NCBI RefSeq assembly: GCF_964194025.1
Contig: NC_134479.1
Coordinates: 15,624,001-15,688,000, forward strand
Reading direction: 5' to 3'
Source of the DNA: Convolutriloba macropyga
Lineage: Eukaryota
Length of the DNA: 64,000 bases
Below are positions 9,058 through 35,818 of the stretch, piece after piece. Position 1 is the stretch's first letter. Each line of letters begins with the position of its first letter. The notes beneath the pieces were generated by a model. That model saw only the letters and a list, made by a program, of their open reading frames with translations, searched no databases and was not told where the DNA came from. Position numbers and translations under genes: made by a program.

Positions 9058-9701
9058 ATGAATTAATACTCGGTTCAAACTAATGATTTTTGATACATTT
9101 TTGGTTTTTTTAGAATTAGTTTATTTGATGTAAAATCTTTCCTGCATATATTGAATGATAATGATACCACTGGAAGTGTGAATGAATTCTTACAAAAGTG
9201 CAATTGCATTCCATATATTGTATTCCTCGCAACGTATTTCTAGGAATTTCGCTTAAGGAAACAATATTCGGTAACCCTTGCGACCCCACTATTAGTCTTG
9301 GTGCCAGGATTAGTTTTGTATCTTGTTTTCTTCGCACTGATAATGGGTATGTATACAGCTAATTAGCTCGTTTTTGAGTCCTTTTTCATCCCAAAAATCA
9401 GATCTCCATCTTGATCTATCAGACAGATCTCTCATTAAAAACGCGTTTCATTGCGCCTGTGAAGGTCCATAACCCAACATTTTTATTCACGCCATCTGAA
9501 CCTTTTTATGTAAATAGACATTTTTTTCAAAATTAAACAGCAGATTTTACCGATAATCAATCTGCTACAAAACAAAAATCAAAAAATATAAAACATTGAA
9601 AACTCTGCTTTTTGTTAAACTAAATTTATCGTAACAATGTACTGAAAGTCAAAATCTGCAGTTTCGGGCTGCGGGTCATGGCCATGTCTCAGTGGCATGT
9701 G

Positions 9702-9788
9702 AGTAGTAGATGATACCGGCTAGGAGGACATACAGGGGGGGGGGACACTTGCAAAAGGATTTTCGCCCCACCGGGATTCGAACCCGGA
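9702..9788 (+). repeat. Left terminal inverted repeat of the Polinton
   Basis: Reverse complement of 35735-35818 apart from two substitutions and G-run length. Confidence 0.95.
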
Positions 9789-9833
9789 TCTAGTGCATGG
9801 GAAGCAGAAATCATACCACTGGACCAAAGGTGT
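9763..9833 (-). ncRNA. tRNA-like Pol III-type unit at the left end, pointing outward (CCC at anticodon position; not a canonical tRNA)
   Basis: Minus strand reads ACACCTT-TGGTCCAGTGG(A-box)-TATGATTTCTGC-TTCCCAT-GCACTAGAT-CCGGG-TTCGAAT-CCCGG(T-arm/B-box)-TGGGGC, then TTTT at 9756-9753. The acceptor stem pairs poorly. Confidence 0.6.
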
Positions 9834-10179: not shown

Positions 10180-10458
10180 ATGACAAACCGAGTTGTAAAA
10201 GATGAAATTGATGGCGGTATTACAAATTTAGTGTTTGATGATGGAAACCGGGAGAGACCCCCATGGCGCTGCTGTTCCAATACCGTAGTCCCTCGGTCTG
10301 AGATTATATTTTTTGTTCAAGTGAGTATCATAGTACTCATGATAAGTCTTTGTTTCGCCATGCTGTTCTTGATATCGGAAAGTTGTGAGGAGAAGTCAAT
10401 TTGGATTGCATTGCTTTCGAGTCTAGTTGGCTATATTTTACCAAATCCTAAACTATGA
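10180..10458 (+). CDS. Small two-TM membrane protein of Polinton/adintovirus type (92 aa, intact)
   Basis: Two hydrophobic segments and C-terminal LLSSLVGYILPNPKL; its stop overlaps the ATPase start (ATGA). Confidence 0.75.
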   Translation: MTNRVVKDEIDGGITNLVFDDGNRERPPWRCCSNTVVPRSEIIFFVQVSIIVLMISLCFAMLFLISESCEEKSIWIALLSSLVGYILPNPKL

Positions 10459-11143
10459 ACAAAGTCATTCTCACAAACGATAGAATCTTCATGGCGGTTG
10501 TAGGTCCAAGTGGTTGTGGGAAAACCGACCTAATATTCAACATTCTGATGTTCTAATGTTCTATCCTGAATTCCTCAAAATTTCTTACTTCTACAAAGAG
10601 TTCCAGGACATATTTACATCTATGCAACAAAAAATACCACAAATTGAATTCATCAAGTATTCTGGATTGGATATAACAAAGAAGCTTTCGGATTGTCTCC
10701 TAATTTACGACGACTCATGCGAGGAAGTATTTAACGATAAATAATTTGTGAAAATAGCTACATGTGGACGTCATCGTAGACTTCACGTAATTTATGTGAA
10801 GCATAATTTGTTCCAACAGAGCAAGTGGTCACGAACAATTGAGCTAAACACCACTCATATAATTTTATTCAAATCACTGCGCGACATTCAACAGATTGAA
10901 TACCTTGGAAAACAGTTGAACTGTCTCCAATTACTCAAGGACGCATACAAATTAGCAACAACTCACCCCTATGGACATTTAATCATTGACCTGGATCTGA
11001 AAACAAGTCAAGGTTTACGATTTGCATCACAAATTATTGGACCTGATCCTTCAATTTTCTATATTCCTTCGGAGGAAGCCGTTGTTACACCAATTACGAA
11101 TGAAAAGGAAACATTTGCTTATGCTCAAGCAATGGGCAAATAG
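10455..11143 (+). pseudogene. A32/FtsK-like genome packaging ATPase
   Basis: MNKVILTNDRIFMAVVGPSGCGKT (Walker A), LLIYDD (Walker B) and GRH..HNLF..RTIELN motifs. Frameshift at ~10550 and premature TAA at 10742-10744. Confidence 0.92.
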
Positions 11144-11413: not shown

Positions 11414-12113
11414 AGAGTTTGTGTTAATACCTAAACAGATGTATACAAGAGAACAACCTCATATATCTCAATTACTCAGCAACAAAAAAATTCACAACCC
11501 AGCCAAGCAGATATCGCTTCTCCAAGGAAACAAGTCACCATCAGCTCCCCCTGCCTCGCAGCAGGATACAGAGCAACAAACTAACGCTTCAATGGATGAT
11601 GCAAGTACAATAAATGAGTCTATGGAAAAATCATTTACGACGGACAACACATCAACTATCAGACAAGGAGCGTTGAATGATATTAGAATCTTGAAGGGGA
11701 TAAAATTTGAAAGAGCGAGAAAAATACTGGAGATAATAGAAGAAACGGATTCTGTGTCCTTGGACTCATCAAAGAGATTGCTTATCAAAGGTTCAAATAC
11801 GGAAGTTCTTGCTGCTACATTTCTTTACAATCTACAGCAAACCACTTGTAAATTTTCTTTCGAACAATTCAATTTATTAGCGCTTCTCGATATTGGTCCG
11901 CATTTGACTTGTAACACATACGCCAAAAAGTTTCTAAATTTATTATCTGAAGAGAAGCTACATTTTTTGGAATATGAATCGGAAAAAGAAGATGCTTCAA
12001 AATCCCACAGAAAAAAAGCAAAAACTTCTGACAACGATGAGGGAAGCTTTGAAGAGGCAGAAGAAGAAATCAAACCAGCCAGCCCCTGGGAAAATTACTT
12101 CCTTTCAAGCTAA
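11403..12113 (+). CDS. Polinton hypothetical protein (236 aa, intact)
   Basis: Open ORF starting MHTEEFVLIP, packed between the small ORF and the integrase; acidic C-terminus. Confidence 0.7.
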   Translation: MHTEEFVLIPKQMYTREQPHISQLLSNKKIHNPAKQISLLQGNKSPSAPPASQQDTEQQTNASMDDASTINESMEKSFTTDNTSTIRQGALNDIRILKGIKFERARKILEIIEETDSVSLDSSKRLLIKGSNTEVLAATFLYNLQQTTCKFSFEQFNLLALLDIGPHLTCNTYAKKFLNLLSEEKLHFLEYESEKEDASKSHRKKAKTSDNDEGSFEEAEEEIKPASPWENYFLSS

Positions 12114-13014
12114 ACAGTTAGACAAATTGTACACGACAGGCAGTGCTGCATTTGGTAGTATTGCTAATTTAAAGAAGGCTAGTGGCTATACTAGAAGCAA
12201 AATTGTTCGCTATCTTCAGTCAAAAGCCCCCTACACGAAATACAGACAATTCAGGAAAAGCTTCCCCCGACTGAAAGCTGTTGCATACAGAATAAACGAA
12301 ATCTGGTCTGTCGATGTTGCGTTTATGGATAAAGTTGCCCAACACAACAATGGCGTAAAATATTTGTTAGTGGCTGTGGATGTTTTATCGCGTTACTTAC
12401 AAGTTCAACCAATGAAGGTCTTTTATGCAAAAGATGATGTTGAAGCCTTCAAAAAAATGATCAAGAAGAAACAGCCAGAGAAAGTATAGACAGACAAGGG
12501 ATCAGAATTTAAAGGAGATTTCAAAAAGTTTTGTGAGAAGAAAGGAATTCATTTATATACAACAGAAAACGAAACCAAGTCGGCATTTGCAGAGAGGAAC
12601 ATTCGATCGCTTAAAAACATCATTTACAAATATTTGGAGGAAAAGTGGACTTGGACGTATATTAAAGATTTGCCCCAGTTTGTAAATACTATAAACGGTC
12701 GTGTCAACCGGGTTACCCAATTAGCACCTAATAAAATTTTCAAAAGACACGAACCATTTTTAATATCACTTGCTTCAGACAACAACAAATACAAACCAAA
12801 ATACGAAGAAGGAGACCTTGTTAGGATTGCAACGCTTTTCAGAAAAGCTTATAAACAAAACTACACAGACGAAGTTTTCACAGTACTACGATTGGCTACA
12901 ACAAGTCCACCCACATACAATCTCTTTGACGCGAACAACGTTGAAATCCTAGGGAAATTTTTTGAACCGGAATTGGCAAAAAATGACGTGTTGAAAACTG
13001 AAGAGGAGCAATGA
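11974..13014 (+). pseudogene. Retroviral-like (rve) integrase
   Basis: WSVDVAFM..KYLLVAVDVLSRY..KV*TDKGSEF..KSAFAERNIRSLK gives the DDE core. Premature TAG at 12487-12489 (probably a former TGG). True start codon uncertain; no chromodomain seen. Confidence 0.95.
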
Positions 13015-13795
13015 GTTCTAACAGCGATGAGTTTACAATTGACTTGATTTCCAACGCCTCGATGGGAATTTTTAGTGAGAACACGATGGCGTCATTTCGG
13101 AATCAATTATCTCAATTGATCCAACTACAAGGAGAATGGCAAGTGGCGTTGACTTCACTATCTTTTCCATCAAATATCAATAACGTCAACTCTGGAGAAA
13201 TTGTTGTTTACACAAATTCAAGGACCGAGACCGATGAGTTGAGAAATCAATCAGGGCAAAACAGAAAAACTCGGACTGGTATTTACAACAGTTGGGAAAA
13301 TCTAGTCACAGAAATTGTTCGCATTGCAAGTTTGAAACAGTTCGATCGCAGGTTCGACAAAGTCACGCAAAAACTCACGTTGACATTTGGGAAAAACGAA
13401 GGATTGTAATTCCAAGACAATGAAATTCCCAGCATTCTTGGTTTTAAAGGCACGCCTGACCCTTCACATAGTGGATTTGTGCATATCGGTTACAAGAAAA
13501 ACGTGGAAAATGAAAATGCAAACGCTCCTAACAGACATTTAGCCAACTTCCCCGTCGATATAACATGTGGATCACAGCTGATTTTTGTCTACATCGACAT
13601 TATTGAACATCAACACGTGGGTGACTCGCGGGTACCCGTTCTCAAAATCATCGAGTCGGAAAGACGTCTAAGAAACGGTAGCCTCAACACCGTCACACCT
13701 GTTCACCATAAAACTTTCACAAACTTGGATTACAAGCGTTTACTTTCAAACAATATCCAGAACATCAAAGTCGAGCTGAGAAACGAGACCGGGCC
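13011..13795 (+). pseudogene. Minor capsid protein (penton, single jelly roll)
   Basis: FTIDLISNASMGIFSENTMASFRNQL..GEWQVAL and IFVYIDIIEHQHVGDSRVPVLKII..IKVELRNETG motifs. Premature TAA at 13407-13409; last residues appear deleted. Confidence 0.85.
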
Positions 13796-13822: not shown

Positions 13823-14221
13823 ATGCCCCATTTCTCAGGACATTACAGACAAAGAGGAAGTGGATTCGGCGCATTAGTTGCTGGTATTGAACGTGTGGCA
13901 TTACCCTTAGCTAGGCGAGTTATTTGGCCAGCAGCGAAAAAAATCGGAAGAGAATTGCTAGTGCAAGGTTCACCAGAGTTATTAGAATTTGCAACAAAGA
14001 AGAAATCAGCGAAGCAAGCTCTGAAAAGTACAGTTAAAAAAACAGCTAAAAAACAAATCGGAGGGTCACTTCAACGTGGTCAAAAAGCAGCCTATCCCAA
14101 AAGGTCAACCTCGAAGAAAACATATAAAAAACCTCTACCAAAGAAAAGGATCATCTCTCAAAAAGCAAACCTACAAAGGAGTCGATCGGATTTCTTCTCT
14201 AAAGTGAAAAATGCGTACTAA
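13823..14221 (+). CDS. Basic core/DNA-binding-like virion protein (132 aa, intact)
   Basis: MPHFSGHYRQRGSGFG N-terminus (QxGxG motif), amphipathic helix, Lys/Arg-rich tail and IGG/S resembling an adenain cleavage site; lies between mCP and MCP. Confidence 0.7.
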   Translation: MPHFSGHYRQRGSGFGALVAGIERVALPLARRVIWPAAKKIGRELLVQGSPELLEFATKKKSAKQALKSTVKKTAKKQIGGSLQRGQKAAYPKRSTSKKTYKKPLPKKRIISQKANLQRSRSDFFSKVKNAY

Positions 14222-15512
14222 CATTGTTATTCCCACAGAGGCTACACACAGCTCACTCGACTTATTCGAAAAACCTCCTCTGCTGGTTACATTTGATCAA
14301 TCATTCGAGCAAAAAACGAACACTTTACTCACCCACTGGATCTTCGTTAGAGTTTGAAATAGTCGGTGACAGAAATAATTTCATCGACCTGCAGAAAATT
14401 TATCTGGAAATCAAATTTCGAGTTGTTCAAAGTAATGGAAACGATTTACGCTTCAACACGGGAGATGCCAACAATAGTGACTCACCACATTTGGTCAATA
14501 ACGCCTTACATTCGCTTTTTACTGATTGCTCAGCGTCAGCAAACGGTATTAAAATTTCTTTCGCCAATGGTCACTACGCACACAAGAGTTTCATTGAAAC
14601 AGAATTTTCTCATGGGTCGGATGCGAAAAAAACCTGGCTGATATGTCAGGGATATGAATATGAAGCAGACCCAACAGGTGTCCCAGCCGCTACAATTACA
14701 GCTCGACAAGTAACTGTGAGAAGATCAGCCCAAATCACAATGTATGGAAAAATTGCTACCAATTTTTTTTCATGCGAGACTATCTAGCGAGCGGAGTAAC
14801 TTTACGAATTTTTTTCCGACGATCACAGGATGATTTTACGATTGTAAGTGAAGACGGGGCTCAACACTATAAAATCAAAATTGATGAAGCAAATTTGTTC
14901 GTGCGAAAAATGACGGTCTCGGATAACGTGGTGGGCGCAATCGAGAAAACACTTCTCAAAACACCTGCAATGTATCGCTAAAATGAAGTTATTTCAAAAG
15001 CTTTTCTAGCAACAGCTGGGCAACAGAGCTGGAAACAAGAGGACATTTTCACTAAAGAACCCATTCGGAGATTGATAGTTGCCAAGTGCCGCAGTGATGC
15101 GTTCATCAGTACCAGTACGCTAAATCCATTTTCATATAGAAAGTTTGACTTAAATGAGATAATAAATTACCGTAATGGGTTCGCCACCGCTGGCACACCG
15201 ATGTCAACAACTGATAATAAACGACTATACTACAACTCAATGGCTGCACTAGCTTATGTAGAAAATGGTGACGGAATACCGCTCACTGACTTTCCCGAAC
15301 ACTATATAATGGTATTTGACCTTACCAGCACACAAGAGGCTACACATGATTTCATCCATCCTGAGTTAACAAACTCATCATCATCCGTGGAACTTAAATT
15401 CGGAGCAGCTTTACCGAACAACATTGAAATATTATTCTTGGAGGAAAAATGTTCAACAGTATACATCGATTCTGCGAGAAACGTTTCCAAAAACGCTCTT
15501 CCTATGATCTAA
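14211..15512 (+). pseudogene. Major capsid protein (double jelly roll, hexon-like)
   Basis: HSSLDLFEKPP..LEFEIVGDRNNFIDL..NNALHSLF..NGHYAHKSFIETEFS..ANLFVRK..NPFSY..VFDLT motifs. Frameshifts at ~14315 and ~14778, stop at 14979-14981. Confidence 0.9.
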
Positions 15513-15957
15513 TGGATGAAGATCGGATATTTAAGTTGATTCTACAATGCAAGCACCTAATTTTTAAATTCAACGGTGTATATGCAGCTAACAATTTCCC
15601 CTTAAACATGCCAACCAATTCATTTGCTATTGTTAACGCATCCCCAGCCTCCTCACCCGGATCTCATTGGATCGTTCTCGCAAAAAAATATGACTACTCA
15701 AAAACATACTTTGCCGACCCGCTGGCATTACCTCTTTATTCATATAAACACATAACAGACTGATTTCGACTGATAGCATGATAGTGGACCTTATGGAAGA
15801 CCGACGTGACTCAAACAAACCCCTGCAAAGTGCAAACTCTCAAATGTGTGGACTTTACTGTATTTATATTGCTCATTATGTTCTCAATGATAACTTTCCA
15901 TTCATTCCCGATATAAATGAAGTTCAGCTTTTGTCATTTGTTAAAAATGTGAAGTGA
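15512..15957 (+). pseudogene. Adenain-like (adenoviral-type) cysteine protease
   Basis: FNGVYAAN..IVNASPASSPGSHWIVL..YFADPL..LQSANSQMCGLYCIY contains the catalytic H, D, Q and C. Stop at 15761-15763 plus a frameshift. Confidence 0.92.
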
Positions 15958-17383
15958 ATATTCTAAAAGTTTCTTTATTTTGTCTGATGACTCATCAGAT
16001 CATGCAATACATTTGAGTATTTTGAATTAAATTCAGGCCCTGGATTAATAGACGGAAAGCTGGATAAACATTTTACAGCTTGTAAACAACTTCAAATTTT
16101 GTCTAGACAATGGAATGTTAGGTATGTAAATAACTAAGATTACAGCATCATGACGTTAACTCGGCTAGACATGAACAAACAAACAGATATCTCGCATCTG
16201 ATTGGTTGATTAAATCTGAGAAGTTTGTTCCGGGGACTTGAAAACCAATCATTGCTTTCTGCCCTACATCTTGAAATCAGTTCACAAAATATTCAGTTTT
16301 TGTTTACAGAATTCAGCTTTTCTCAAAATTCACCTAATCGGAACAACACATTCCCGTGTTTTCGAAATGCCACAAGTCAAGTGTGATATTTGCCAGCAAC
16401 TGCTTTCTGACAAAAGGAGCCCCAGGCGTCACCGAAAAAGCATCCACAAGATCTATCCACAAAGTAATTCATTTGAATGCGAGGAGTGTGGTTTCTCTAC
16501 AAAAAGTCTCTACGAACTAACAGGGCATATGACAGTACATCACGATGCGCCCAATCCCCGCTACTGTCTATATTGCAACAAATGCTTCCCTCGCGATGTT
16601 GATTATTTAGAGCACATGAACGGTGTTCACAGTCTACCAGCATGGAATATTGACTCGGATAACCTTCAACATTCGGGTATTTTGCCGACAGAACGAGCTT
16701 TTGGGGGCGCTCTAAAAACGTACGAAATTGCATTCGGGGCAAATGATCTGGGCTACTTCATGTCATGCATAAAAAACGACAAGAAATTGAAAACATTGTG
16801 CGATTGAGCGTTCAGCAACTTTCACAAAAAGTTCAATTCAGCTCAAAAATACAGTTGACAAAACCTCCAAAACATGATGATGAAATTTTTTCAAGTCAAC
16901 CAGATCGAATCTCAGTATATTTACAGTCAAAAATGGAACGTGTAGACTTTGCGGGTCTGTCAGACAAAAGCTTCCATAGCATGGTTGAGCAGATGCTTCT
17001 GTCGTTGAACAATTTTGCATCACACGGTAGTGGTTGCATCAGATTGAGAACATAGAAGTACGATTGGTAAAAAACAAACCAATAAGCGCATCTTCATATC
17101 TAGCGCTCCCGGGAACACTCTCTGGTATGTCGGCTTTGTTTAATATACGAAACAGAGAGGATAAACACTGTTTCCTCTACTGTTATACCGCAGCGTACCA
17201 TTTGAAGTATGGCCCCCGACTTGTTCCTATTGGTTCTTCATCACGAAGGATAACCAGCCCTGCTACATACGGACCAGGAAATCGAATTGCGAAACAGGCA
17301 AGTGGCGATTTCAAAATGCCAATGGGCTTTCATCAAATGCCAAGATTCGGGGCACTCAATGATGTCTGTGTCAACGTTTTTCG

Positions 17384-17565
17384 GTGAGAAAAAGTTAAAC
17401 TTTCAAACTCCTATGACCCCCTCCAGAAAAGAACAATTTTCAAACACTTATAACCCCATCCAGAAAAAAACAACTTTCAAACTCTTATACCCCCTCCAGA
17501 AAAAAATAAACTAGATCTAGACCTAAAAGTGTTAAAAACAATGATAACACAAAATTAATTTTTAG
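17384..17565 (+). other. Spliceosomal intron 1 of pPolB (182 bp, phase 2)
   Basis: CG|GTGAGA ... TTTTTAG|G. Removal joins VNVFR to YTESGPTPFRVSKK..LDLLLLSDGQMHHYVLI in frame. Contains three ~37-bp tandem repeats. Confidence 0.85.
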
Positions 17566-20066
17566 GTACACTGAGAGCGGGCCAACACCATTCAGAGTAT
17601 CAAAAAAAACAAACTGCGACTTTAATTTGGATCTTCTACTGCTTAGTGATGGTCAAATGCATCACTATGTCTTGATCCGAAATTTGCGTAGTTTTATACA
17701 CAGAGTCCGCGAGCGAGTCCAAGGACTGAAAACTATATTTGTCGAAACTGCTTTCACGTTTCTTCTTCAAAGGAGCGTCATGATAAAAATCTTGGCTTTT
17801 GTCTAGAAAACAAACCAGCAGTCGTATCTGGCTGTGGGAACAACCCGCAAAATGCAGAAACAAGAATCATAGAGCTTCAAAAGCCATGCAGCTACGCAAT
17901 GCTTTTTGTTGGGCAGGACGAGGTTGAGCCCTTTCATTTTGAATGCGAAAGTGGTCCTGACATCATGTCCAAGTTTGTAGAATCTCTCGAGCAAATAGCG
18001 AAGAAAATATATCAAGCGAAACAACGAAACAGGTATTTTCATGGTGAGGCGCCATATTCAAAGGAAGATGCAGACGATTGTTGGATATGTGAGGAAACTC
18101 TTGAAAACACAATAGAAAACCCAACTCTTTGGGATCACTGTCATTTTACAGGCCAATTTTTAGGATGGGCACACAACAGTTGTAACATCAATAGAAAGTT
18201 CTTAAACTACACACCGGTATTTGCTCACAACCTTTCGAATTACGATCTTCACCACGTAATTCTTGCTCTTCAAGGGAGCAATATGTGCAATACTATCTCA
18301 ATTATACCCAGTACAGATAAAAAATTCATAGCTGTTGAAATTGGTGTTCTAATCAAGATGCGTCCTGACAAAAATGGAGTCAATAAACCAGTGTATGAGC
18401 ACATAAGATTATTGGATTCCTTCCGATTCATGCCATCATCACTAGACACTCTCACTAAAAATCTACCACCAACCGAGTTCACCTTGCTCGAAGACTACTT
18501 CAAAGACTGGCCAGAATCATCTCTAAACACGCTCAAGCAAAAAAGCTTCTTCCCTTACAACTACATCGACAGCTTTCCAAAACTCGGAGAATCTGAACTA
18601 CCATCGAGAGAAAAGTAGACTAACAGCCTTCAACAGTACCAAATTAGTGTAACTGAGGATGAATACAAGCACGCTCTTACTGTTTTTGAAGCATTCAAAT
18701 GTAAAACAATTGGAGAGTACTACAATCTCTATTTGAAAACGGATGTCTTCCTCCTTGCTGCTGTCGTATTTTGCTTTCGCTAGGTATGCTACCAAACTTA
18801 TGGACTTGACTGTTGTCAATACTACACAGCTTCAAATCTTTCGGGGGACGCTAAGCTCAAAATTTGTCAGGCACCCCTTGAGCTTCTCACAGACAGGGAA
18901 CAGTTGCACATGGTTGAGGGTTTGATCAGGGGCGGAGTGAGTTCTATCTACAACAGGGGACTCTCAGTTGCCAACAACAAATATCTCCCGAATTTCAATC
19001 CAAAAGAATCTTCAACATTTATAGTCATGATTGACGCGAACAATCTTATGGTGGCATAATGGAAAAGTTCACGTTGCCTCTCAATGATTTTGAGTTCACA
19101 AACCAACAATGGGACTCTGATCTTGAGCCACAATTCATTCAGAAAGTACTGGAGACTTCTGACGATAGTGATGTTGGATACATTTTGGAAGTGGACTTGT
19201 CATACCCAGACGCACTTCATGACCTTCACTCTGATTTCCCCCTAGCTCCAGTGAAGCAGCAGGTTGAACGTGCTGGTTAGGCGATTATCAAGAAGAACTC
19301 TTAACTGATATGCAGATGAATGCCCCACCCTCGAGTAATAAGCTCATTCAAACTCTATTCCCCAAGAAGAACTATATTCTACATTACCAGACACTAAAAT
19401 TATATGTTCAATTAGGTATGAAGGTTGAAAAACTGCATCGTGCGCTAACGTTTAACCAATCAAAGTGGTTGGCGCCATACGTTCAACTCAACACGCAAAA
19501 ACGAAAGGAGGCAAAAAACAATTTTGAGGAAAATTTTTATAAACTGATGGTCAACAGCACCTTCGGAAAAACATTTGAGGGGACGAGGAATCGAATCAAG
19601 GTGAAATTAGGCCGTAGTGAAGATGAGGCTCTCAAGTGGACTTGCACTCCACAGCTGAAATCTTTCAAAATAATTGGTGAAGATCTGGCAACAATTAGCC
19701 TTAACCAAACTAAAATTCTGTGGGATAAACCAACAATCGTTGGTGCATGTATCCTGGATCTCTCCAAGAAGTTCATGTTTGACTTTCACTATAATACTAT
19801 GAAAAAGCATTTCAACTGCAAACTGTTATACTCAGACACAGACCCATTCGTTTACGAGATCAGATCTAATGAATTTTACGCCGAACTGAGACGAAAAACT
19901 GCTCTTAAAGATCTCTTCGACTTCTCCAACTTCCCCAGCGACCATGAGCTCCATGACCGTTGTAATGCCCGGGTTACACTAAAGTTCAAGGATGAGATGG
20001 GTGGTAAACTGATCTCGGAGTTTGTGGGCCTCAAACCAAAGCTATACTCAATCAAACTTGCGGATG

Positions 20067-20205
20067 GTGAGTATACATTTAAATATTTCTTTGGGAACAA
20101 GAAAACATTATTTCCTATACATGTAAAAATGCAGGCAAGACTGGTGAAAGCGTAAAAGATATTAGAAAGGTGTAAGAGGCTCAAAAACAAAAGTAGAATT
20201 TTCAG
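20067..20205 (+). other. Spliceosomal intron 2 of pPolB (139 bp, phase 1)
   Basis: G|GTGAGT ... TTTTCAG|GA. Removal joins GLKPKLYSIKLADG to SPKQSAKGV in frame with the 20256-20957 ORF. Confidence 0.88.
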
Positions 20206-21075
20206 GATCTCCTAAGCAGTCAGCCAAAGGTGTCACGAAGGATGCTCGCAGTAAGATGACTCATGAAATGTACAAGCAAGTGCTCAACGGTGGAGAAACA
20301 ATGAGACTAGTCAACACAAGAATTGCTTCTAGCAAACATCAGTTGATGACAGTTGTTTGTAACAAAAAATCGCTCTCTGGATATGACGATAAACGCTATA
20401 TTTTGGACGATAGGATCACTACACTACCGTACGGCCATCACGCTCTGCGAGAGGAAATGTTCATGCGGAAGATTCTTCATGATCCTGACTGGAGTTCAAG
20501 CGATGACGAGGAGACAAACGTTCACTTCGCCGAATCAACTATGGAGCAGAGTCCGCCGATTACTCAGCACAAACAGCTTTCAGAAACTTGGTCACCACCT
20601 GATCCAGGTTTTAACCAGCGTGAGTACAGTGAGGATGAGGATGATATTGTCAATTTTGCAAACCTTACTCAACAAGAGAGTGAGGGAGAGCTCGATAGGT
20701 GTTCTTTCATAGAAGACCATGCCATTGAATCAGGTTCGTCGCCTAGTCTTCTCGACCTAAGACCAGATTCCCCCATACATCTTTCTATCGATACTTCAGC
20801 ACAAAAGCAATCCACACACCGACCGCGACCATCAAAACGTAACAAAAATTGTGCAAAATGGAGGCTGGAGCTGATATCAGACGATGAATCTTTCAATATA
20901 GAAAGAATTAGGAAATGGAGAGTAGTGAAAATAGACTCAGATAGTGAAGAAAACTAAATTTGTAAAATTTACAGCTTACGTTTTGTGATTTGTTTCGTCT
21001 CTGCTTTATTTTTATAAAAGTATTAACCGTTTGTTGGATTTAAGAAAGCTTTTCAACTAGAGTCATAAAACAGTT

Positions 21076-24000
21076 CATAATATTAGTCTTTAAGGCTCCC
21101 ATATAATCGGTTGATCATTTATATCTAAGTCATTTTCATCCACAGTACCTTCAATCCATAGTATAAGTCTTTTAAAAGCTCCCATATAAGCAGTTGACCA
21201 ATTTATATCTAAGTCATTTTTGTCCTCAGTACCTTCAATCCATAGTATAAGTCCTTTAAAATCTCCTATATAAGCAGTTGATCAATTTATGTCTAGGTCA
21301 TTTTCATCCTCAGTACCTTCAATCCATAGTATAAGTCTTTTAAAAGCTCCCATATAAGCAGTTGATCAATTTATAACTAAGTCATTTTCATCCTCAGTAC
21401 CTTCAATCCATAGTATAAGTCTTTTAAAAGCTCCCATATAAGCAGTTGATCAATTAATGTCCAAGTCATTTTCATCCTCAGTACCTTCAATCCATAGTAT
21501 AAGTCTCTTAAAGCTCCCATATAAGCAGTTGATCAATTTATATCTAAGTCATTTTCATCCTCAGTACCTTCAATCCATAGTATAAACGTTTAAAGCCTCC
21601 CATATAAGCAGTTGATCAGTTTATATCTAAGTCATTCTCATCCCCAGTACCTTCAATTCATAGTATCAGTCTTTTAAAAGCTCCCATATAAGCAGATGAT
21701 CAATTTATATCTAAGTCAGTTTTGTCCTCAGTACCTTCAATCCATAGTATAAGTCTTTTAAAAGCTCCCATATAAGCAGTTGATCAATTAATGTCTAAGT
21801 CATTTTCATCCTCAGTACCTTCAATCCATAGTATAAGTCTCTTAAAGCTCCAATATAAGCAGTTGATCAATTTATATCTAAGTCATTCTCATCCTCAGTA
21901 CCTTCAATCCATAGTAAAAGTCTTTTAAAAGCTTCCATATAAGCAGTTGACCAGTTTATATCTAAGTCATTTTGTCCTCAGTACCTTCAATCCATAGTAT
22001 AAGTCTTTTAAAAGCTCCCATATAAGCAGTTGATCAATTTATGTCAAGGTCATTTTCATCCTCAGTACCTTCAATCCATAGTATAAGTCTTTTAAAAGCT
22101 CCCATATAAGCAGTTGATCAATTTATAACTAAGTCATTTTCATCCTCAGTATCTTCAATCCGTAGTATAAGTCTTTAAAGCCTCCCATATAAGCAGTTGA
22201 TCAATTTATATCTAAGTCATTTTCATCCCCAGTACCTTCAATCCATAGTATAAGTCTTTTAAAAGCTCCCATATAAGCAGGTGATCAATTTATATCTAAG
22301 TCAGTTTTGTCCTCAGTGCCTTCAATCCATAGTATAAGTCTTTTAAAAGCTCCCATATAAGCAGTTGATCAATTTTATGTCTAAGTCATTTTCATCCTCA
22401 GTACCTTCAATCCATAGTATAAGTCTCTTAAAGCTCCCATATAAGCATTTGATCAATTTATATCTAAGTCATTTTCATCCTCAGTACCTTCAATCCATAG
22501 TATAGGTCTTTAATGCCTCCCATATAAGCAGTTGATCAAATTATATCTAAGTCATTTTCATCCTCAGTACCTTCAATCCATAGTATAAGTCTTTTAAAAG
22601 CTCCCATATAAGCAGGTGATCAATTTATATCTAAGTGATTTTTGTCCTCAGTACCTTCAATCCATAGTATAAGTCTTTTAAAGCCCCCCACATAAGCAGT
22701 TGATCAATTTATATCTTAGTCACTTTTGTACTCAGTACCTTCAATCCATAGTATAAGTCTTTTAAAAGCTCCCATATAAGCAGGTGATCAATTTATATCT
22801 AAGTCAGTTTTGTCCTCAGTACCTTCAATCCATAGTCTAAGTCTTTTAAAAGCTCCCATGTAAGTAGTTGATCAATTAATGTCTAAATCATTTTCATCCT
22901 CAGTACCTTCAATCCATAGTATAAGTCTCTTAAAGCTCCCTTATAAGCAGTTGATCAATTTATATCTAAGTCATTTTCATTCTCAGTACCTTCAATCCAT
23001 AGTATAAGTCTTTAAAGCCTCCCATATAAGCAGTTGATCAATTTATATCTAAGTCATTTTCATCCTCAGTACCTTCAATCCATAGTATAAGTCTTTAAAG
23101 CCTCCCATATAAGCAGGTGATCAATTTATATCTAAGTCAGTTTTGTCCTCAGTACCTTCAATCCATAGTATAAGTCTTTTAAAAGCTCCCATGTAAGCAG
23201 TTCATCAATTAATGTCTAAATCATTTTCATCCTCAGTACCTTCAATCCATAGTATAAGTCTCTTAAAGCTCCCTTATAAGCAGTTGATCAATTTATATCT
23301 AAGTCATTTTCTTTCTCAGTACCTTCAATCCATAGTATAAGTCTTTAAAGCCTCCCATATAAGCAGGTGATCAATTTATATCTAAGTCAGTTTTGTCCTC
23401 AGTACCTTCAATCCATAGTATAAGTCTCTTAAAGCCTCCCATATAAGCAGTTGATCAATTTATATCCAAGTCATTTTTGTCCTCCGTATCTTCAATCCAC
23501 AGTATAAGTCTTTTAAAGCCTCCCACACAGGCAGTTGATCAATTTATATTCAAGTCATTTTTGTCCTCAGTACCTTCAATCCATAGTATAAGTCTTTTAA
23601 AGCCTCCCACACAAGCAGTTGATCAATTTATATCTAAGTCATTTTCATCCTCAGTACCTTCAATCCATAGTATACGTCTTTTCAAGCCCCCCACATAAGC
23701 AGTTGATCAACATATATCTAAGTCATTTTTGTCCTCAGTACCTTCAATCCATAGTATAAGTCTTTAAAGCCTCCCATATAAGCAGTTGATCAATTTATAT
23801 CTAAGTCATTTTCATCCCCACTACCTTCAATCCATAGTATAAGTCTTTTAAAAGCTCCCATATAAGCAGGTGATCAATTTATATCTAAGTCAGTTTTGTC
23901 CTCAGTAACTTCAATCCATAGTATAAGTCTTTTAAAAGCTCCCATATAAGCAGTTGATCAATTAATGTCTAAATCATTTTCATCCTCAGTACCTTCAATC

Positions 24001-27000
24001 CATAGTATAAGTCTTTTAAAGCTCCCATATAAGCAGTTGATCAATTTATATCTAAGTCATTTTCATCCTCAGTACCTTCAATCCATAGTATAAGTCTTCA
24101 AAGCCTCCCATATAAGCAGTTGATCAATTTCTATCTAAGTCATTTTCATCCTCAGTACCTTCAATCCATAGTATAAGTCTTTTAAAAGCTCCCATATAAG
24201 CAGGTGATCAATTTATATCTAAGTGATTTTTGTCCTCAGTACCTTCAATCCATAGTATAAGTCTTTTAAAGCCCCCCACATAAGCAGTTGATCAATTTAT
24301 ATCTTAGTCATTTTTGTACTCAGTACCTTCAATCCATAGTATAAGTCTTTTAAAAGCTCCCATATAAGCAGGTGATCAATTTATATCTTAGTCAGTTTTG
24401 TCCTCAGTACCTTCAATCCATAGTATAAGTCTTTTAAAAGCTCCCATATAAGCAGTTGATCAATTAATGTCTAAGTCATTTTCATCCTCAGTACCTTCAA
24501 TCCATAGTATAAGTCTCTTAAAGCTCCCATATAAGCAGTTGATCAATTTATATTTAAGTCATTTTCATTCTCAGTACCTTCACTCCATAGTATAAGTCTT
24601 TAAAGCCTCCCATATAAGCAGTTGATCAATTTATATCTAAGTCATTTTCATCGTCAGTACCTTCAATCCATAGTATAAGTCTTTAAAGCCTCCCATATAA
24701 GCAGTTGATCAATTTATATCTAAGTCATTTTCATCCTCAGTACCTTCAATCCATAGTATAAGTCTTTTAAAAGATCCCATATAAGCAGTTGATTAATTTA
24801 TATCTAAGTCAGTTTTGTCCTCAGTACCTTCAATCCATAGTATAAGTCTCTTAAAGCCTCCCATATAAGCAGTTGATCAATTTATATCCAAGTCATTTTT
24901 GTCCTCAGTATCTTCAATCCATAGTATAAGCCTTTTAAAGCCTCCCACACAGGCAGTTGATCAATTTATATCTTAGTCATTTTTGTACTCAGTACCTTCA
25001 ATCCATAGTATAAGTCCTTTAAAAGCTCCCATATAAGCAGGTGATCAATTTATATCTAAGTCATTTTCATCCTCAGTACCTTCAATCCATAGTATACGTC
25101 TTTTCAAGCCCCCCATATAAGCAGTTGATCAAAATATATCTAAGTCATTTTTGTCCTCAGTACCTTCAATCCATAGTATAAGTCTTTAAAGCCTCCCATA
25201 TAAGCAGGTGATCAATTTATATCTAAGTCAGTTTTGTCCTCAGTACCTTCAATCCATAGTATAAGTCTCTTAAAGCCTCCCATATAAGCAGTTGATCAAT
25301 TTATATCCAAGTCATTTTTGTCCTCAGTATCTTCAATCCATAGTATAAGTCTTTTAAAGCCTCCCACACAGGCAGTTGATCAATTTATATCTTAGTCATT
25401 TTTGTACTCAGTACCTTCAATCCATAGTATAAGTCCTTTAAAAGCTCCCATATAAGCAGGTGATCAATTTATATCTAAGTCATTTTCATCCTCAGTACCT
25501 TCAATCCATAGTATACGCCTTTTCAAGCCCCCCATATAAGCAGTTGATCAATATATATCTAAGTCATTTTTGTCCTCAGTACCTTCAATCCATAGTATAA
25601 GTCTTTAAAGCCTCCCATATAAGCAGTTGATCAATTTATATCTAAGTCATTTTCATCCCCAGTACCTTCAATCCATAGTATAAGTCTTTTAAAAGCTCCC
25701 ATATAAGCAGGTGATCAATTTATATCTAAGTCAGCTTTGTCCTCAGTACCTTCAATCCATAGTATAAGTCTTTTAAAATCTCCCATATAAGCAGTTGATC
25801 AATTAATGTCTAAGTCATTTTCACCCTCAGCACCTTCAATCCATAGTATAAGTCTCTTAAAGCTCCCATATAAGCAGTTGATTAATTTATATCTAAGTCA
25901 TTTTCATCCTCAGTACCTTCAATCCATAGTATAAGTCTTTAAAGCCTCCCATATAAGCAGTTGATCAATTAATGTCCAAGTCATTTTCATCCTCAGTACC
26001 TTCAATCCATAGTATAAGTCTCTTAAAGCTCCCATATAAGCAGTTGATCAATTTATATCTAAGTCATTTTCATCCTCAGTACCTTCAATCCATAGTATAA
26101 ACGTTTAAAGCCTCCCATATAAGCAGTTGATCAGTTTATATCTAAGTCATTCTCATCCCCAGTACCTTCAATTCATAGTATCAGTCTTTTAAAAGCTCCC
26201 ATATAAGCAGATGATCAATTTATATCTAAGTCAGTTTTGTCCTCAGTACCTTCAATCCATAGTATAAGTCTTTTAAAAGCTCCCATATAAGCAGTTGATC
26301 AATTAATGTCTAAGTCATTTTCATCCTCAGTACCTTCAATCCATAGTATAAGTCTCTTAAAGCTCCAATATAAGCAGTTGATCAATTTATATCTAAGTCA
26401 TTCTCATCCTCAGTACCTTCAATCCATAGTAAAAGTCTTTTAAAAGCTTCCATATAAGCAGTTGACCAGTTTATATCTAAGTCATTTTGTCCTCAGTACC
26501 TTCAATCCATAGTATAAGTCTTTTAAAAGCTCCCATATAAGCAGTTGATCAATTTATGTCAAGGTCATTTTCATCCTCAGTACCTTCAATCCATAGTATA
26601 AGTCTTTTAAAAGCTCCCATATAAGCAGTTGATCAATTTATAACTAAGTCATTTTCATCCTCAGTATCTTCAATCCGTAGTATAAGTCTTTAAAGCCTCC
26701 CATATAAGCAGTTGATCAATTTATATCTAAGTCATTTTCATCCCCAGTACCTTCAATCCATAGTATAAGTCTTTTAAAAGCTCCCATATAAGCAGGTGAT
26801 CAATTTATATCTAAGTCAGTTTTGTCCTCAGTGCCTTCAATCCATAGTATAAGTCTTTTAAAAGCTCCCATATAAGCAGTTGATCAATTTTATGTCTAAG
26901 TCATTTTCATCCTCAGTACCTTCAATCCATAGTATAAGTCTCTTAAAGCTCCCATATAAGCATTTGATCAATTTATATCTAAGTCATTTTCATCCTCAGT

Positions 27001-30000
27001 ACCTTCAATCCATAGTATAGGTCTTTAATGCCTCCCATATAAGCAGTTGATCAAATTATATCTAAGTCATTTTCATCCTCAGTACCTTCAATCCATAGTA
27101 TAAGTCTTTTAAAAGCTCCCATATAAGCAGGTGATCAATTTATATCTAAGTGATTTTTGTCCTCAGTACCTTCAATCCATAGTATAAGTCTTTTAAAGCC
27201 CCCCACATAAGCAGTTGATCAATTTATATCTTAGTCACTTTTGTACTCAGTACCTTCAATCCATAGTATAAGTCTTTTAAAAGCTCCCATATAAGCAGGT
27301 GATCAATTTATATCTAAGTCAGTTTTGTCCTCAGTACCTTCAATCCATAGTCTAAGTCTTTTAAAAGCTCCCATGTAAGTAGTTGATCAATTAATGTCTA
27401 AATCATTTTCATCCTCAGTACCTTCAATCCATAGTATAAGTCTCTTAAAGCTCCCTTATAAGCAGTTGATCAATTTATATCTAAGTCATTTTCATTCTCA
27501 GTACCTTCAATCCATAGTATAAGTCTTTAAAGCCTCCCATATAAGCAGTTGATCAATTTATATCTAAGTCATTTTCATCCTCAGTACCTTCAATCCATAG
27601 TATAAGTCTTTAAAGCCTCCCATATAAGCAGGTGATCAATTTATATCTAAGTCAGTTTTGTCCTCAGTACCTTCAATCCATAGTATAAGTCTTTTAAAAG
27701 CTCCCATGTAAGCAGTTCATCAATTAATGTCTAAATCATTTTCATCCTCAGTACCTTCAATCCATAGTATAAGTCTCTTAAAGCTCCCTTATAAGCAGTT
27801 GATCAATTTATATCTAAGTCATTTTCTTTCTCAGTACCTTCAATCCATAGTATAAGTCTTTAAAGCCTCCCATATAAGCAGGTGATCAATTTATATCTAA
27901 GTCAGTTTTGTCCTCAGTACCTTCAATCCATAGTATAAGTCTCTTAAAGCCTCCCATATAAGCAGTTGATCAATTTATATCCAAGTCATTTTTGTCCTCC
28001 GTATCTTCAATCCACAGTATAAGTCTTTTAAAGCCTCCCACACAGGCAGTTGATCAATTTATATTCAAGTCATTTTTGTCCTCAGTACCTTCAATCCATA
28101 GTATAAGTCTTTTAAAGCCTCCCACACAAGCAGTTGATCAATTTATATCTAAGTCATTTTCATCCTCAGTACCTTCAATCCATAGTATACGTCTTTTCAA
28201 GCCCCCCACATAAGCAGTTGATCAACATATATCTAAGTCATTTTTGTCCTCAGTACCTTCAATCCATAGTATAAGTCTTTAAAGCCTCCCATATAAGCAG
28301 TTGATCAATTTATATCTAAGTCATTTTCATCCCCACTACCTTCAATCCATAGTATAAGTCTTTTAAAAGCTCCCATATAAGCAGGTGATCAATTTATATC
28401 TAAGTCAGTTTTGTCCTCAGTAACTTCAATCCATAGTATAAGTCTTTTAAAAGCTCCCATATAAGCAGTTGATCAATTAATGTCTAAATCATTTTCATCC
28501 TCAGTACCTTCAATCCATAGTATAAGTCTTTTAAAGCTCCCATATAAGCAGTTGATCAATTTATATCTAAGTCATTTTCATCCTCAGTACCTTCAATCCA
28601 TAGTATAAGTCTTCAAAGCCTCCCATATAAGCAGTTGATCAATTTCTATCTAAGTCATTTTCATCCTCAGTACCTTCAATCCATAGTATAAGTCTTTTAA
28701 AAGCTCCCATATAAGCAGGTGATCAATTTATATCTAAGTGATTTTTGTCCTCAGTACCTTCAATCCATAGTATAAGTCTTTTAAAGCCCCCCACATAAGC
28801 AGTTGATCAATTTATATCTTAGTCATTTTTGTACTCAGTACCTTCAATCCATAGTATAAGTCTTTTAAAAGCTCCCATATAAGCAGGTGATCAATTTATA
28901 TCTTAGTCAGTTTTGTCCTCAGTACCTTCAATCCATAGTATAAGTCTTTTAAAAGCTCCCATATAAGCAGTTGATCAATTAATGTCTAAGTCATTTTCAT
29001 CCTCAGTACCTTCAATCCATAGTATAAGTCTCTTAAAGCTCCCATATAAGCAGTTGATCAATTTATATTTAAGTCATTTTCATTCTCAGTACCTTCACTC
29101 CATAGTATAAGTCTTTAAAGCCTCCCATATAAGCAGTTGATCAATTTATATCTAAGTCATTTTCATCGTCAGTACCTTCAATCCATAGTATAAGTCTTTA
29201 AAGCCTCCCATATAAGCAGTTGATCAATTTATATCTAAGTCATTTTCATCCTCAGTACCTTCAATCCATAGTATAAGTCTTTTAAAAGATCCCATATAAG
29301 CAGTTGATTAATTTATCTCTAAGTCAGTTTTGTCCTCAGTACCTTCAATCCATAGTATAAGTCTCTTAAAGCCTCCCATATAAGCAGTTGATCAATTTAT
29401 ATCCAAGTCATTTTTGTCCTCAGTATCTTCAATCCATAGTATAAGCCTTTTAAAGCCTCCCACACAGGCAGTTGATCAATTTATATCTTAGTCATTTTTG
29501 TACTCAGTACCTTCAATCCATAGTATAAGTCCTTTAAAAGCTCCCATATAAGCAGGTGATCAATTTATATCTAAGTCATTTTCATCCTCAGTACCTTCAA
29601 TCCATAGTATACGTCTTTTCAAGCCCCCCATATAAGCAGTTGATCAAAATATATCTAAGTCATTTTTGTCCTCAGTACCTTCAATCCATAGTATAAGTCT
29701 TTAAAGCCTCCCATATAAGCAGGTGATCAATTTATATCTAAGTCAGTTTTGTCCTCAGTACCTTCAATCCATAGTATAAGTCTCTTAAAGCCTCCCATAT
29801 AAGCAGTTGATCAATTTATATCCAAGTCATTTTTGTCCTCAGTATCTTCAATCCATAGTATAAGTCTTTTAAAGCCTCCCACACAGGCAGTTGATCAATT
29901 TATATCTTAGTCATTTTTGTACTCAGTACCTTCAATCCATAGTATAAGTCCTTTAAAAGCTCCCATATAAGCAGGTGATCAATTTATATCTAAGTCATTT

Positions 30001-32801
30001 TCATCCTCAGTACCTTCAATCCATAGTATACGCCTTTTCAAGCCCCCCATATAAGCAGTTGATCAATATATATCTAAGTCATTTTTGTCCTCAGTACCTT
30101 CAATCCATAGTATAAGTCTTTAAAGCCTCCCATATAAGCAGTTGATCAATTTATATCTAAGTCATTTTCATCCCCAGTACCTTCAATCCATAGTATAAGT
30201 CTTTTAAAAGCTCCCATATAAGCAGGTGATCAATTTATATCTAAGTCAGCTTTGTCCTCAGTACCTTCAATCCATAGTATAAGTCTTTTAAAATCTCCCA
30301 TATAAGCAGTTGATCAATTAATGTCTAAGTCATTTTCACCCTCAGCACCTTCAATCCATAGTATAAGTCTCTTAAAGCTCCCATATAAGCAGTTGATTAA
30401 TTTATATCTAAGTCATTTTCATCCTCAGTACCTTCAATCCATAGTATAAGTCTTTAAAGCCTCCCATATAAGCAGTTGATCAATTTATATCAAAGTCATT
30501 TTCATCCTCAGTACCTTCAATCCATAGTATAAGTCTTTTAAAAGCTCCCATATAAGCAGGTGATCAATTTATATCTAAGTAATTTTTGTCCTCAGTACCT
30601 TCAATCCATAGTATAAGTCTTTTAAAGCCCCCCACATAAGCAGTTCATCAATTTATATCTTAGTCATTTTTGTACTCAGTACCTTCAATCCATAGTATAA
30701 GTCTTTTAAAAGCTCCCATATAAGCAGGTGATCAATTTATATCGAAGTCAGTTTTGTCCTCAGTACCTTCAATCCATAGTATAAGTCTTTTAAAAGCTCC
30801 CATATAAGCAGTTGATCAATTAATGTCTAAGTCATTTTCATCCTCAGTACCTTCAATCCATAGTATAGGTCTCTTAAAGCTCCCATATAAGCAGTTGATC
30901 AATTTATATCTAAGTCATTTTCATTCTCAGTACCTTCACTCCATAGTATAAGTCTTTAAAGCCTCCCATATAAGCAGTTGATCAATTTATATCTAAGTCA
31001 TTTTCATCGTCAGTACCTTCAATCCATAGTATAAGTCTTTTAAAAGCTCCCATATTAGCAGTTGATCAATTTATATCTAAGTCAGTTTTGTCCTCAGTAC
31101 CTTCAATCCATAGTATAAGTCTCTTAAAGCCTCCCATATAAGCAGTTGATCAATTTATATCCAAGTCATTTTTGTCCTCAGTATCTTCAATCCATAGTAT
31201 AAGTCTTTTAAAGCCTCCCACACAGGCAGTTGATCAATTTATATTCAAGTCATTTTTGTCCTCAGTACCTTCAATCCATAGTATAAGTCTTTTAAAGCCT
31301 CCCACACAAGCAGTTGATCAATTTACATCTAAGTCATTTTCATCCTCAGTACCTTCAATCCATAGTATACGTCTTTTCATGCCCCCCACATAAGCAGTTG
31401 ATCAATATATATCTAAGTCATTTTTGTCCTCAGTACCTTCAATCCATAGTATAAGTCTCTTAAAGCCTCCCATATAAGCAGTTGATCAATTTATATCTAA
31501 GTCATTTTTGTCCTCAGTACCTTCAATCCATAGTATAAGTCTTTTAAAGCCTCCCACACAAGCAGTTGATCAATTTATATTCAAGTCATTTTTGTCCTCA
31601 GTACCTTCAATCCATAGTATAAGTCTTTTAAAGTCTCCCACACAAGCAGTTGATCAATTTATATTCAAGTCATTTTTGTCCTCAGTACCTTCAATCCATA
31701 GTATAAGTCTTTTAAAGCCTCCCATATAAGCAGTTGATCAATTTATGTCTAAGTCATTTTTGTCCTCAGTATCTTCAATCCATAGTATAAGTCTTTTAAA
31801 GCCTCCCACACAAGCAGTTGATCAATTTATATTCAAGTCATTTTTGTCCTCAGTACCTTCAATTCATATTATAAGTCTTTTAAAGCCTCCCACACAAGCA
31901 GTTGATCAATTTATATCTAAGTCATTTTCATCCTAAGTACCTTCAATCCATAGTATAAGTCTTTTAAAAGCTCCCATATAAGCAGTTGATCAATTTATAT
32001 TCAAGTCATTTTTGTCCTCAGTACCTTCAATCCATAGTAGAAGCCTTTTAAAGCCTCCCACACAAGCAGTTGATCAATTTATATTCAAGTCATTTTTGTC
32101 CTCAGTACCTTCAATCCATAGTATAAGTCTTTTAAAAGCTCCCATATAAGCAGTTGATTAATTTATATCTAAGTCAATTTCATAATCAGTACCTTCAATC
32201 CATAGTATAAGTCTTTTAAAAGCTCCCATACAAGCAGTTGATCAATTTACATCTAAGTCATTTTCATCCTCAGTACCTTCAATCCATAGTATAAGTCTTT
32301 TAAAGCCCCCCACACAAGCAGTTGATCAATTTATGTCTAAGTCATTTTCATCCTCAGTATCTTCAATCCATAGAATAAGTCTTTTAAAAGCCCCCCACAT
32401 AAGCAATTGATCAATTTATATCTACGTCATTTTCATCCTCAGTACCTTCAATCCATAGTATAAGTCTTTTAAAGCCCCCCACATAAGCAGTTGATCAATT
32501 TATATCTAAGTCAATTTCATACTCAGTACCTTCAATCCATAGTATAAGTCTTTTAAAAGCTCCCATACAAGCAGTTGATCAATTTATATCTAAGTCATTT
32601 TTGTCCTCAGTACCTTCAATCCATAGTATAAGTCTTTTAAAGCCTCCCACACAGGCAGTTGATCAATTTATATCTTAGTCATTTTTGTACTCAGTACCTT
32701 CAATCCATAGTATAAGTCCTTTAAAAGCTCCCATATAAGCAGTTGATCAATTTATATCTAAGTCATTTTCATCCTCAGTACCTTCAATCCATAGTATAAG
32801 T
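21076..32801. repeat. Satellite array inside the Polinton, unit 83-84 bp, ~140 copies, 11.7 kb
   Basis: Consensus AGTACCTTCAATCCATAGTATAAGTCTTTTAAAAGCTCCCATATAAGCAGTTGATCAATTTATATCTAAGTCATTTTCATCCTC; includes a near-exact 4515-bp higher-order duplication. Confidence 0.98.
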
Positions 32802-35689: not shown

Positions 35690-35759
35690 GTCACTTTAGC
35701 TCAGTGTTTCAAGAGCTGCTCAATAAGCGAAGGGTCCGGGTTCGAATCCCGGTGGGGCA
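35690..35759 (+). ncRNA. tRNA-like Pol III-type unit at the right end, pointing outward
   Basis: TAGCTCAGTG (A-box-like; GCTC/GAGC D-stem), shortened anticodon region, CCGGG-TTCGAAT-CCCGG T-arm/B-box, then TTTT at 35767-35770. Confidence 0.55.
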
Positions 35760-35818
35760 AAAATCCTTTTGCAAGTGTCCCCCCCTGTATGTCCCCCTAG
35801 CCGGTATCATCTACTACT
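35735..35818 (-). repeat. Right terminal inverted repeat of the Polinton
   Basis: Reverse complement of 9702-9788. Confidence 0.95.

Follow-up and report, generated by a model that had tools for sequence, protein, structure and literature searches.

Two conserved spliceosomal-type introns in the polymerase gene of a Polinton clade in Convolutriloba macropyga

A polymerase gene interrupted by two GT-AG segments

The 64,000-nucleotide stretch of Convolutriloba macropyga DNA analyzed here (contig NC_134479.1, positions 15,624,001 to 15,688,000; hereafter the window) contains a 26-kb Polinton/Maverick element at 9702-35818. Within the element lies a gene for a protein-primed family B polymerase (pPolB) with a terminal protein (TP) domain and a vOTU domain, which was identified by a match to PF03175 and by a model of a sibling stretch that matches adintovirus PolB. 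Two segments, both enclosed by the element, divide this gene into three exons (Table 1). A first-pass annotation had described them as GT-AG introns, and its coordinates and ends proved exact: TCG/GTGAGA...TTTTAG/G for intron 1 and ATG/GTGAGT...TTTCAG/G for intron 2 (slashes mark the junctions). Neither 182 nt nor 139 nt is divisible by 3. The accompanying claim, that removal of both segments restores conserved junctions, also held, since the rejoined flanks match uninterrupted homologues in spacing. At junction 1, the distance between VNVF and the P of PFxxS is 24 nt, and at junction 2, KxYS and AKG lie 10-11 residues apart. In most close siblings intron 1 measures 86-127 nt; its greater length in the window is due to an internal 37-nt tandem repeat, present in three copies. 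The acceptor tracts of the window copy, TTTTAG and TTTCAG, are short.

Any implication that this particular gene copy is intact did not stand. Relative to sibling frames, the window pPolB has five frame switches (near 16750, 17030, 17720, 19047, and 19270), two in exon 1 and three in exon 2, and exon 2 also contains the two in-frame stops. Decay extends to the integrase, protease, and capsid-like genes, all of them broken. We conclude that the window copy is a dead, decayed Polinton/Maverick.

The interruptions recur at the same codons in sibling copies

Sibling copies were collected from the same genome by a search in which 150 of 3516 candidates were scored and by four further protein searches for other families. 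From the best-scoring matches, 140 stretches of 10 kb were picked by hand, giving, with the window, 141 copies. Of these, 46 carry intron 1 and 110 carry intron 2, always at the respective codon and phase, and such recurrence is more than chance. This agrees with the earlier claim that the introns are spliceosomal in type and shared by the lineage. Both introns are found in 36 copies, intron 2 only in 65, intron 1 only in 9, and neither in 16 (one of which is a deletion derivative), with one junction unscored in the remaining 15; the 86 copies without intron 1 belong to many families.

Intron 1 donors are GT in 45/46 copies and GC in the other, and intron 2 ends are GT-AG in 72/110, GC-AG in 31/110, and of other kinds in 7/110. 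The pooled donor profile of 156 segments is MAG/GYRAGT. Thus, the features of U2-type introns, namely GT/GC-AG ends with an extended donor consensus and a T-rich acceptor, are seen in 103/110 intron 2 segments and, for donors, in 46/46 intron 1 segments. Removal restores the frame, and the lengths (86-190 nt for intron 1, 114-649 nt for intron 2) follow no multiple-of-3 rule, all three classes modulo 3 being represented. By family, intron 2 starts 4 or 5 codons past KxYS, in agreement with the loop of uninterrupted relatives, which has 10 or 11 residues.

All four intron states (both, either one alone, neither) are found among the families of this genome. The first-pass annotation had pointed to sibling copies as the place where the segments might be absent or be read through in frame. 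Families lacking one or both were found. They form entire clades whose empty sites are exact, a pattern expected of precise loss rather than of insertion into individual copies; in-frame read-through was found in 0/46 intron 1 and 0/110 intron 2 segments. Families at 70-74% with frames of 1200-1290 aa, considered as candidates for intronless members, were ruled out, as they are without intron 1 only. Comparison with two uninterrupted proteins revealed no further shared pPolB insertions beyond the two junctions and the variable N-terminal and tail regions, and no shared insertion was seen in the integrase, capsid-like, or protease genes of the 25 loci listed.

Two families show individual changes at intron 2. 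In the large family L068-L110, the donor is mostly GC (AAG/GCAAGT) and otherwise of near-perfect consensus, while close relatives have GT; this GT-to-GC switch has been maintained through the expansion of the family. In L131 (about 7490-7515, coding strand), which belongs to an intron-2 family, the donor and most of the intron are deleted and the acceptor tract is left in frame, so that the protein reads KLYS-SFFSG-PAK; here the loss was imprecise, in contrast to the empty sites, which are exact.

All three exons are under purifying selection

Three stretches were tested for stops in the 129 copies that have all four anchors. Fifty-five were stop-free: 35 with intron 2 only, 9 with both introns, 9 with neither, and 2 with intron 1 only. 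For subfamily pairs above 70% exon identity, nonsynonymous divergence (dN) was 0.07-0.19 versus a synonymous divergence (dS) of 1.1-2.2 or saturated, and this was true of each exon. All three exons, exon 3 included, are therefore under purifying selection. Across 110 copies, exon 3 retains the AKG-type motif in 102 and the DDKR-type motif in 76. Intron identity between distant families (0.46-0.55) is at the level of shuffled sequence (0.42-0.53), and intron position and phase are kept across families down to about 50% protein identity. Within subfamilies, exon 2 identity is 97.6-99.7%. We infer that intron-bearing families spread recently and that selection acted on exons whose frames join up only after splicing.

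Given that the window copy is dead, one could suppose that the segments are mobile-element or introner insertions, or products of random decay, that entered dead copies and merely look like introns. In dinoflagellates, Maverick/Polinton-like elements carry mobile introner families, mostly acquired after integration (bioRxiv 10.1101/2025.03.18.643946), and in degraded vertebrate Mavericks large insertions are typically called introns by software (PMC8097293). Such an origin is very improbable here. The sites are common to families and assemblies, which already contradicts it, and the stop-free copies include 44 carriers of intron 2 and 11 carriers of intron 1. Genome-wide matches to the segments (16/16 and 8/8) all lie at their own pPolB junction, with none elsewhere, and no terminal inverted repeats are present on the segments, the longest being 7 nt. 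With matches confined to the home junction and no terminal repeat over 7 nt, an identity as introners was rejected. Group I or group II self-splicing introns are unlikely because the segments are 56-200 nt long with interiors at shuffle level.

Probable introns at both junctions in other assemblies

Of the 120 database homologues compared, many in the 46-71% band stop 5-60 residues past KxYS. Two have a 21-22 residue insert after KxYS, and others, including a coral adintovirus PolB, are uninterrupted. In the two with an insert, P0020 and P0030 (the latter corresponding to L175), it is a short intron that a gene caller unaware of introns has read through in frame.

An alignment query found 98 metagenome/viral loci, 23 of which could be scored at neither junction; single-protein queries of metagenome/viral loci gave no matches. 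An insert of about 55-100 nt is present at junction 2 in 8 of the 98 loci, 7 of them with GT/GC-AG ends, and a GT-AG insert of 56-74 nt is present at junction 1 in 3. One locus, L175, has both. Gaps without splice ends in L184, L192, L252, and L257 were left out of these counts. The shorter length of the metagenome introns suggests that they come from another host.

Probable host splicing and the history of the introns

Judging from the DNA, it is very likely that the two GT-AG segments are true spliceosomal introns, which the host removes to make full polymerase, and that the lineage relies on host splicing as the first-pass annotation had proposed. We have very high confidence in the corresponding mechanism, in which the element would be transcribed in the nucleus and the major spliceosome of the host would join the three exons into one TP-vOTU-exonuclease-palm protein. 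An NCBI predicted protein (P0121, XP_075254871.1), identical letter for letter to the sibling copy L050, is joined at both junctions, and a protein from a distant family (P0193) also reads across junction 2. Four sequencing runs (at most three samples, from one study) behave as DNA, with contigs that run through both segments, and say nothing on expression. No joint at either intron was found among 15 of the 29 joints on the window, and the listing for a sibling stretch, made with a share threshold of 40%, contained none.

A tree of 42 rows was used to follow the history of the introns; 7 loci with broken frames were dropped from an earlier tree. Every intron-bearing family falls in one clade (Shimodaira-Hasegawa-like approximate likelihood ratio test, 100), which is shared with families from other assemblies that are not interrupted at all. 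The approximately unbiased test rejected a topology in which the intron-1 carriers form a single clade (p-AU 1e-9). Furthermore, the large family that lacks intron 1 branches within the carriers whichever flank of junction 1 is used for the tree (support 0.97 and 0.99), and its empty site is exact. Both introns are very likely old, site-specific, and inherited with the gene. Early gain followed by repeated exact loss is the simplest reading: both introns were probably gained early in one Polinton clade, would have been inherited through element copying, and would then have been lost precisely and independently in several families. Exact intron loss is usually explained by reverse-transcribed mRNA. 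We give about even chances to a route of this kind here, in which the element would recombine with spliced mRNA reverse-transcribed by host retroelements.

Several points weigh against this account of splicing and descent. The case for splicing is built on genomic sequence. As a computed prediction, P0121 is an imperfect witness, since it also skips a third GT-AG stretch, 378 nt of conserved coding sequence (L050, about 5866-6244, coding strand), a skip that may reflect cryptic or alternative splicing or else a prediction artefact. Branch-point-like words (CTRA/TRAY) occur in only some of 15 segments scanned, with no consistent motif. The acceptor AG of intron 1 lies at the fixed anchor in only 26/46 copies, and in 44/46 (one doubtful) when a two-codon tolerance is allowed. 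Because the copies were hand-picked from the best-scoring of thousands of candidates, counts over the 141 are not genome frequencies. In the trees, a single clade of intron-2 carriers was not rejected (p-AU 0.195), the base of the intron-bearing clade is unresolved, and the groups were named after a first tree had been seen. Finally, parsimony requires at least 3 changes for each intron under either polarity.

This last count would also suit real introns whose patchy distribution arose by repeated gain, or by transfer between families through recombination, at two favoured sites. Deep relatives (the coral adintovirus and a subclade from other assemblies) are without introns, and both sites have proto-splice-like G/G or AG/G contexts in many families. 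On the other hand, position and phase are identical in distant families and in other assemblies, the trees of both junction 1 flanks give the same family groups with no foreign tract, and, as the segments occur nowhere else in the genome, no donor element is visible. We regard repeated gain or transfer as unlikely, though deserving some weight. Taken together, family-level spliceosomal introns in a Polinton pPolB, seen in the window in a decayed copy, are the best overall explanation, and we hold it with high confidence.

Intron 1 splits a predicted vOTU protease

A structure was predicted for a natural uninterrupted 360-aa sibling stretch (mean predicted local distance difference test score 78). 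The model contains a Y-polymerase little-finger-like domain at residues 25-150 (Z 7.7) and an OTU fold at 158-290 (Z 7.9, with many OTU rows); a Foldseek search against PDB gave no match at E 0.001. Junction 1 falls at 250/251, between the invariant Cys180 and His284, and intron 1 thus splits the predicted vOTU protease. In 45/46 intron-1 copies, a stop codon directly follows the split codon, so that retention of intron 1 would leave the zinc fingers, TP, and half of the protease, as judged from the model. Retention of intron 2 would lose the conserved C-terminal motifs.

In adenoviruses, the replicase mRNAs are spliced, and terminal protein and polymerase are made as two products. Intron 1 could by analogy be regulatory, its retention yielding a free primer protein or an off state and so an adenovirus-like separation of TP and polymerase. 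The immediate stop, the weak GC donors at intron 2 in 31 copies, and the model, which shows the TP-vOTU layout of Krupovic et al. with junction 1 between Cys180 and His284, would all be in line with such a role. Nevertheless, the stop follows from the phase-2 GTRA donor consensus and is absent from 2 of the 3 metagenome intron-1 donors, and the 86 copies without intron 1 still multiplied. Z values under 8 give middling support when taken alone. In addition, an mRNA that retains an intron is a likely target of nonsense-mediated decay. We find a regulatory intron 1 doubtful. The suggestion in the first-pass annotation that splicing gates activation of the element is not supported, as families without each intron also multiplied. 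The introns would instead be mostly neutral passengers and not a switch. Similarly improbable in our view is a broader scenario, in which a deep animal Polinton clade with a host-spliced replicase would toggle between full polymerase and free TP primer through intron 1 retention, with the repeated exact losses marking how reverse transcriptases of the host rewrote a DNA virus genome from RNA templates.

Comparison with known elements

The element resembles animal Polintons/Mavericks of the group-1 pPolB, adintovirus-like kind in having terminal inverted repeats, a 6-bp target duplication, an integrase, a protease, and a TP-vOTU-exonuclease-palm pPolB. Vertebrate Mavericks have been described as carrying genes without introns when intact, and the absence of introns from open reading frames (ORFs) is used to recognize intact elements (Barreat and Katzourakis 2021, PMC8097293). 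By that definition (conserved, intronless, uninterrupted ORFs) the window copy is not intact, having stops, frame switches, and family introns, and the clade as a whole differs from intact vertebrate Mavericks in having one or two introns in pPolB. Like the introner-bearing elements of dinoflagellates, this one has spliceosomal-type introns within an integrated Polinton-like element, but the segments here are site-specific, old, inherited with the gene, and present nowhere else in the genome. Nematode Mavericks also carry spliced genes; in those elements, introns interrupt captured host cargo and are missing from the core genes (bioRxiv 10.1101/2022.07.12.499685), whereas here it is the core replicase that has them. 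TP and vOTU domains have been described for Polinton pPolB, and some Polintons have a separate TP gene that is split off upstream of vOTU (bioRxiv 10.1101/2024.03.18.585575). As in these and in adenovirus pTP/Pol, the break is near the TP/vOTU part of the replicase; unlike in separate-TP Polintons, intron 1 falls within vOTU itself, and the spliced product would be a single fused protein in which the catalytic-like Cys and His are conserved. Group I introns have been reported in Polinton-like viruses of cryptophytes (PMC12220804).

Splicing is unmentioned in the main text of PMC8502044, and a literature search (with supplements, Repbase, and the founding papers of 2006-2007 outside its scope) returned no description of conserved spliceosomal introns in Polinton pPolB. 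The introns are very probably real, old, and family-level features of a Polinton replicase, whereas such elements are usually described as intron-free. This has a consequence for surveys. In that of Jeong et al. (10.1101/2023.08.22.554363), only pPolB ORFs of 900 aa or more were kept. In the nine stop-free two-intron copies, the longest ATG-to-stop frame is 825-889 aa, under this cut-off, in keeping with the first-pass expectation that ORF-based surveys would miss or miscall such members. Two-intron families fall below 900 aa and one-intron families pass minus an end, so the clade is dropped or mis-modelled. Intronless-ORF and ORF-length criteria thus exclude or mis-model a whole Polinton clade. 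Old introns in the replicase would also imply nuclear expression, which makes it less likely that this clade has a cycle in the cytoplasm or in a giant-virus factory. With all four intron states in one genome and thousands of candidate copies, the system offers a test bed for exact intron loss from a DNA-replicating element.

The host element and its surroundings

Features of the element are listed in Table 1. Its termini, AGTAGT at 9702 and ACTACT at 35818, are inverted repeats with AGT-type ends, and as expected of a Polinton/Maverick, they are flanked by a 6-bp target duplication (one mismatch, CATGTG/CCTGTG) and accompanied by an integrase and an adenovirus-type protease that are both supported by Pfam.

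Table 1. Features of the Polinton/Maverick in the window (window coordinates)
Feature	Position	Strand	Description
pPolB exon 1	16367..17383	+	C2H2 zinc fingers, predicted terminal-protein domain, first part of vOTU with conserved Cys
Intron 1	17384..17565	+	GT-AG, phase 2, 182 nt, within predicted vOTU domain
pPolB exon 2	17566..20066	+	vOTU remainder (conserved His), endonuclease VII-like insert, exonuclease, palm motifs; PF02945, PF03175
Intron 2	20067..20205	+	GT-AG, phase 1, 139 nt, between KxYS and AKG motifs
pPolB exon 3	20206..20957	+	conserved AKG and DDKR motifs, then acidic tail, stop
Left target-site duplication	9696..9701		CATGTG; 5/6 match to right copy CCTGTG
Left terminal inverted repeat	9702..9787	+	starts AGTAGT
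Packaging-ATPase-like gene, broken	10456..11143	+	P-loop GPSGCGKT readable at 10503
Retroviral-type integrase, broken	12022..13011	+	Pfam rve (PF00665) E 5e-4; sibling E 1e-10
Probable minor capsid protein (name inferred), broken	13002..13793	+	homologue of 285-aa sibling ORF
Probable major capsid protein (name inferred), broken	14208..15509	+	homologue of 435-aa sibling ORF
Adenovirus-type cysteine protease, broken	15509..15867	+	Pfam Peptidase_C5 (PF00770)
84-bp tandem array	21076..32801		about 140 units, inside element, 11.7 kb
Right terminal inverted repeat	35735..35818	-	ends ACTACT
Right target-site duplication	35819..35824		CCTGTG

The capsid-like sibling ORFs of 285 and 435 aa have no Pfam match, and their names come from size and gene order. 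No Pfam match was found for the 3' piece of the ATPase-like gene either; its name, which we take from the P-loop motif and the gene order presumed for Polintons, is provisional. Upstream of this gene, a 92-aa ORF at 10180-10458 has two hydrophobic stretches and no Pfam match. In the family without intron 1, represented here by L088, two extra ORFs lie between the protease and pPolB, a 101-aa C2H2 zinc-finger ORF at 2677-2979 and a 229-aa ORF without a Pfam match at 3292-3978.

The 84-bp array starts directly after pPolB in 30 sibling loci too and is therefore a family feature. A second array, 1 kb of 83-bp units, is located inside the element at 33477-34508. A tRNA-Gly(CCC)-like sequence at 9763-9832 (-) overlaps the inner part of the left terminal repeat, and the right end (about 35694-35765) has the 3' half of this sequence in common and then diverges; the sequence in the left repeat may represent either a Pol III promoter or a short interspersed nuclear element that was captured. 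Outside the element, positions 5000-6600 are very AT-rich (16-17% GC) with imperfect, foldback-like inverted repeats, and short inverted repeats (30-50 nt) cluster at 53039-53618, possibly forming a small non-autonomous transposon array.

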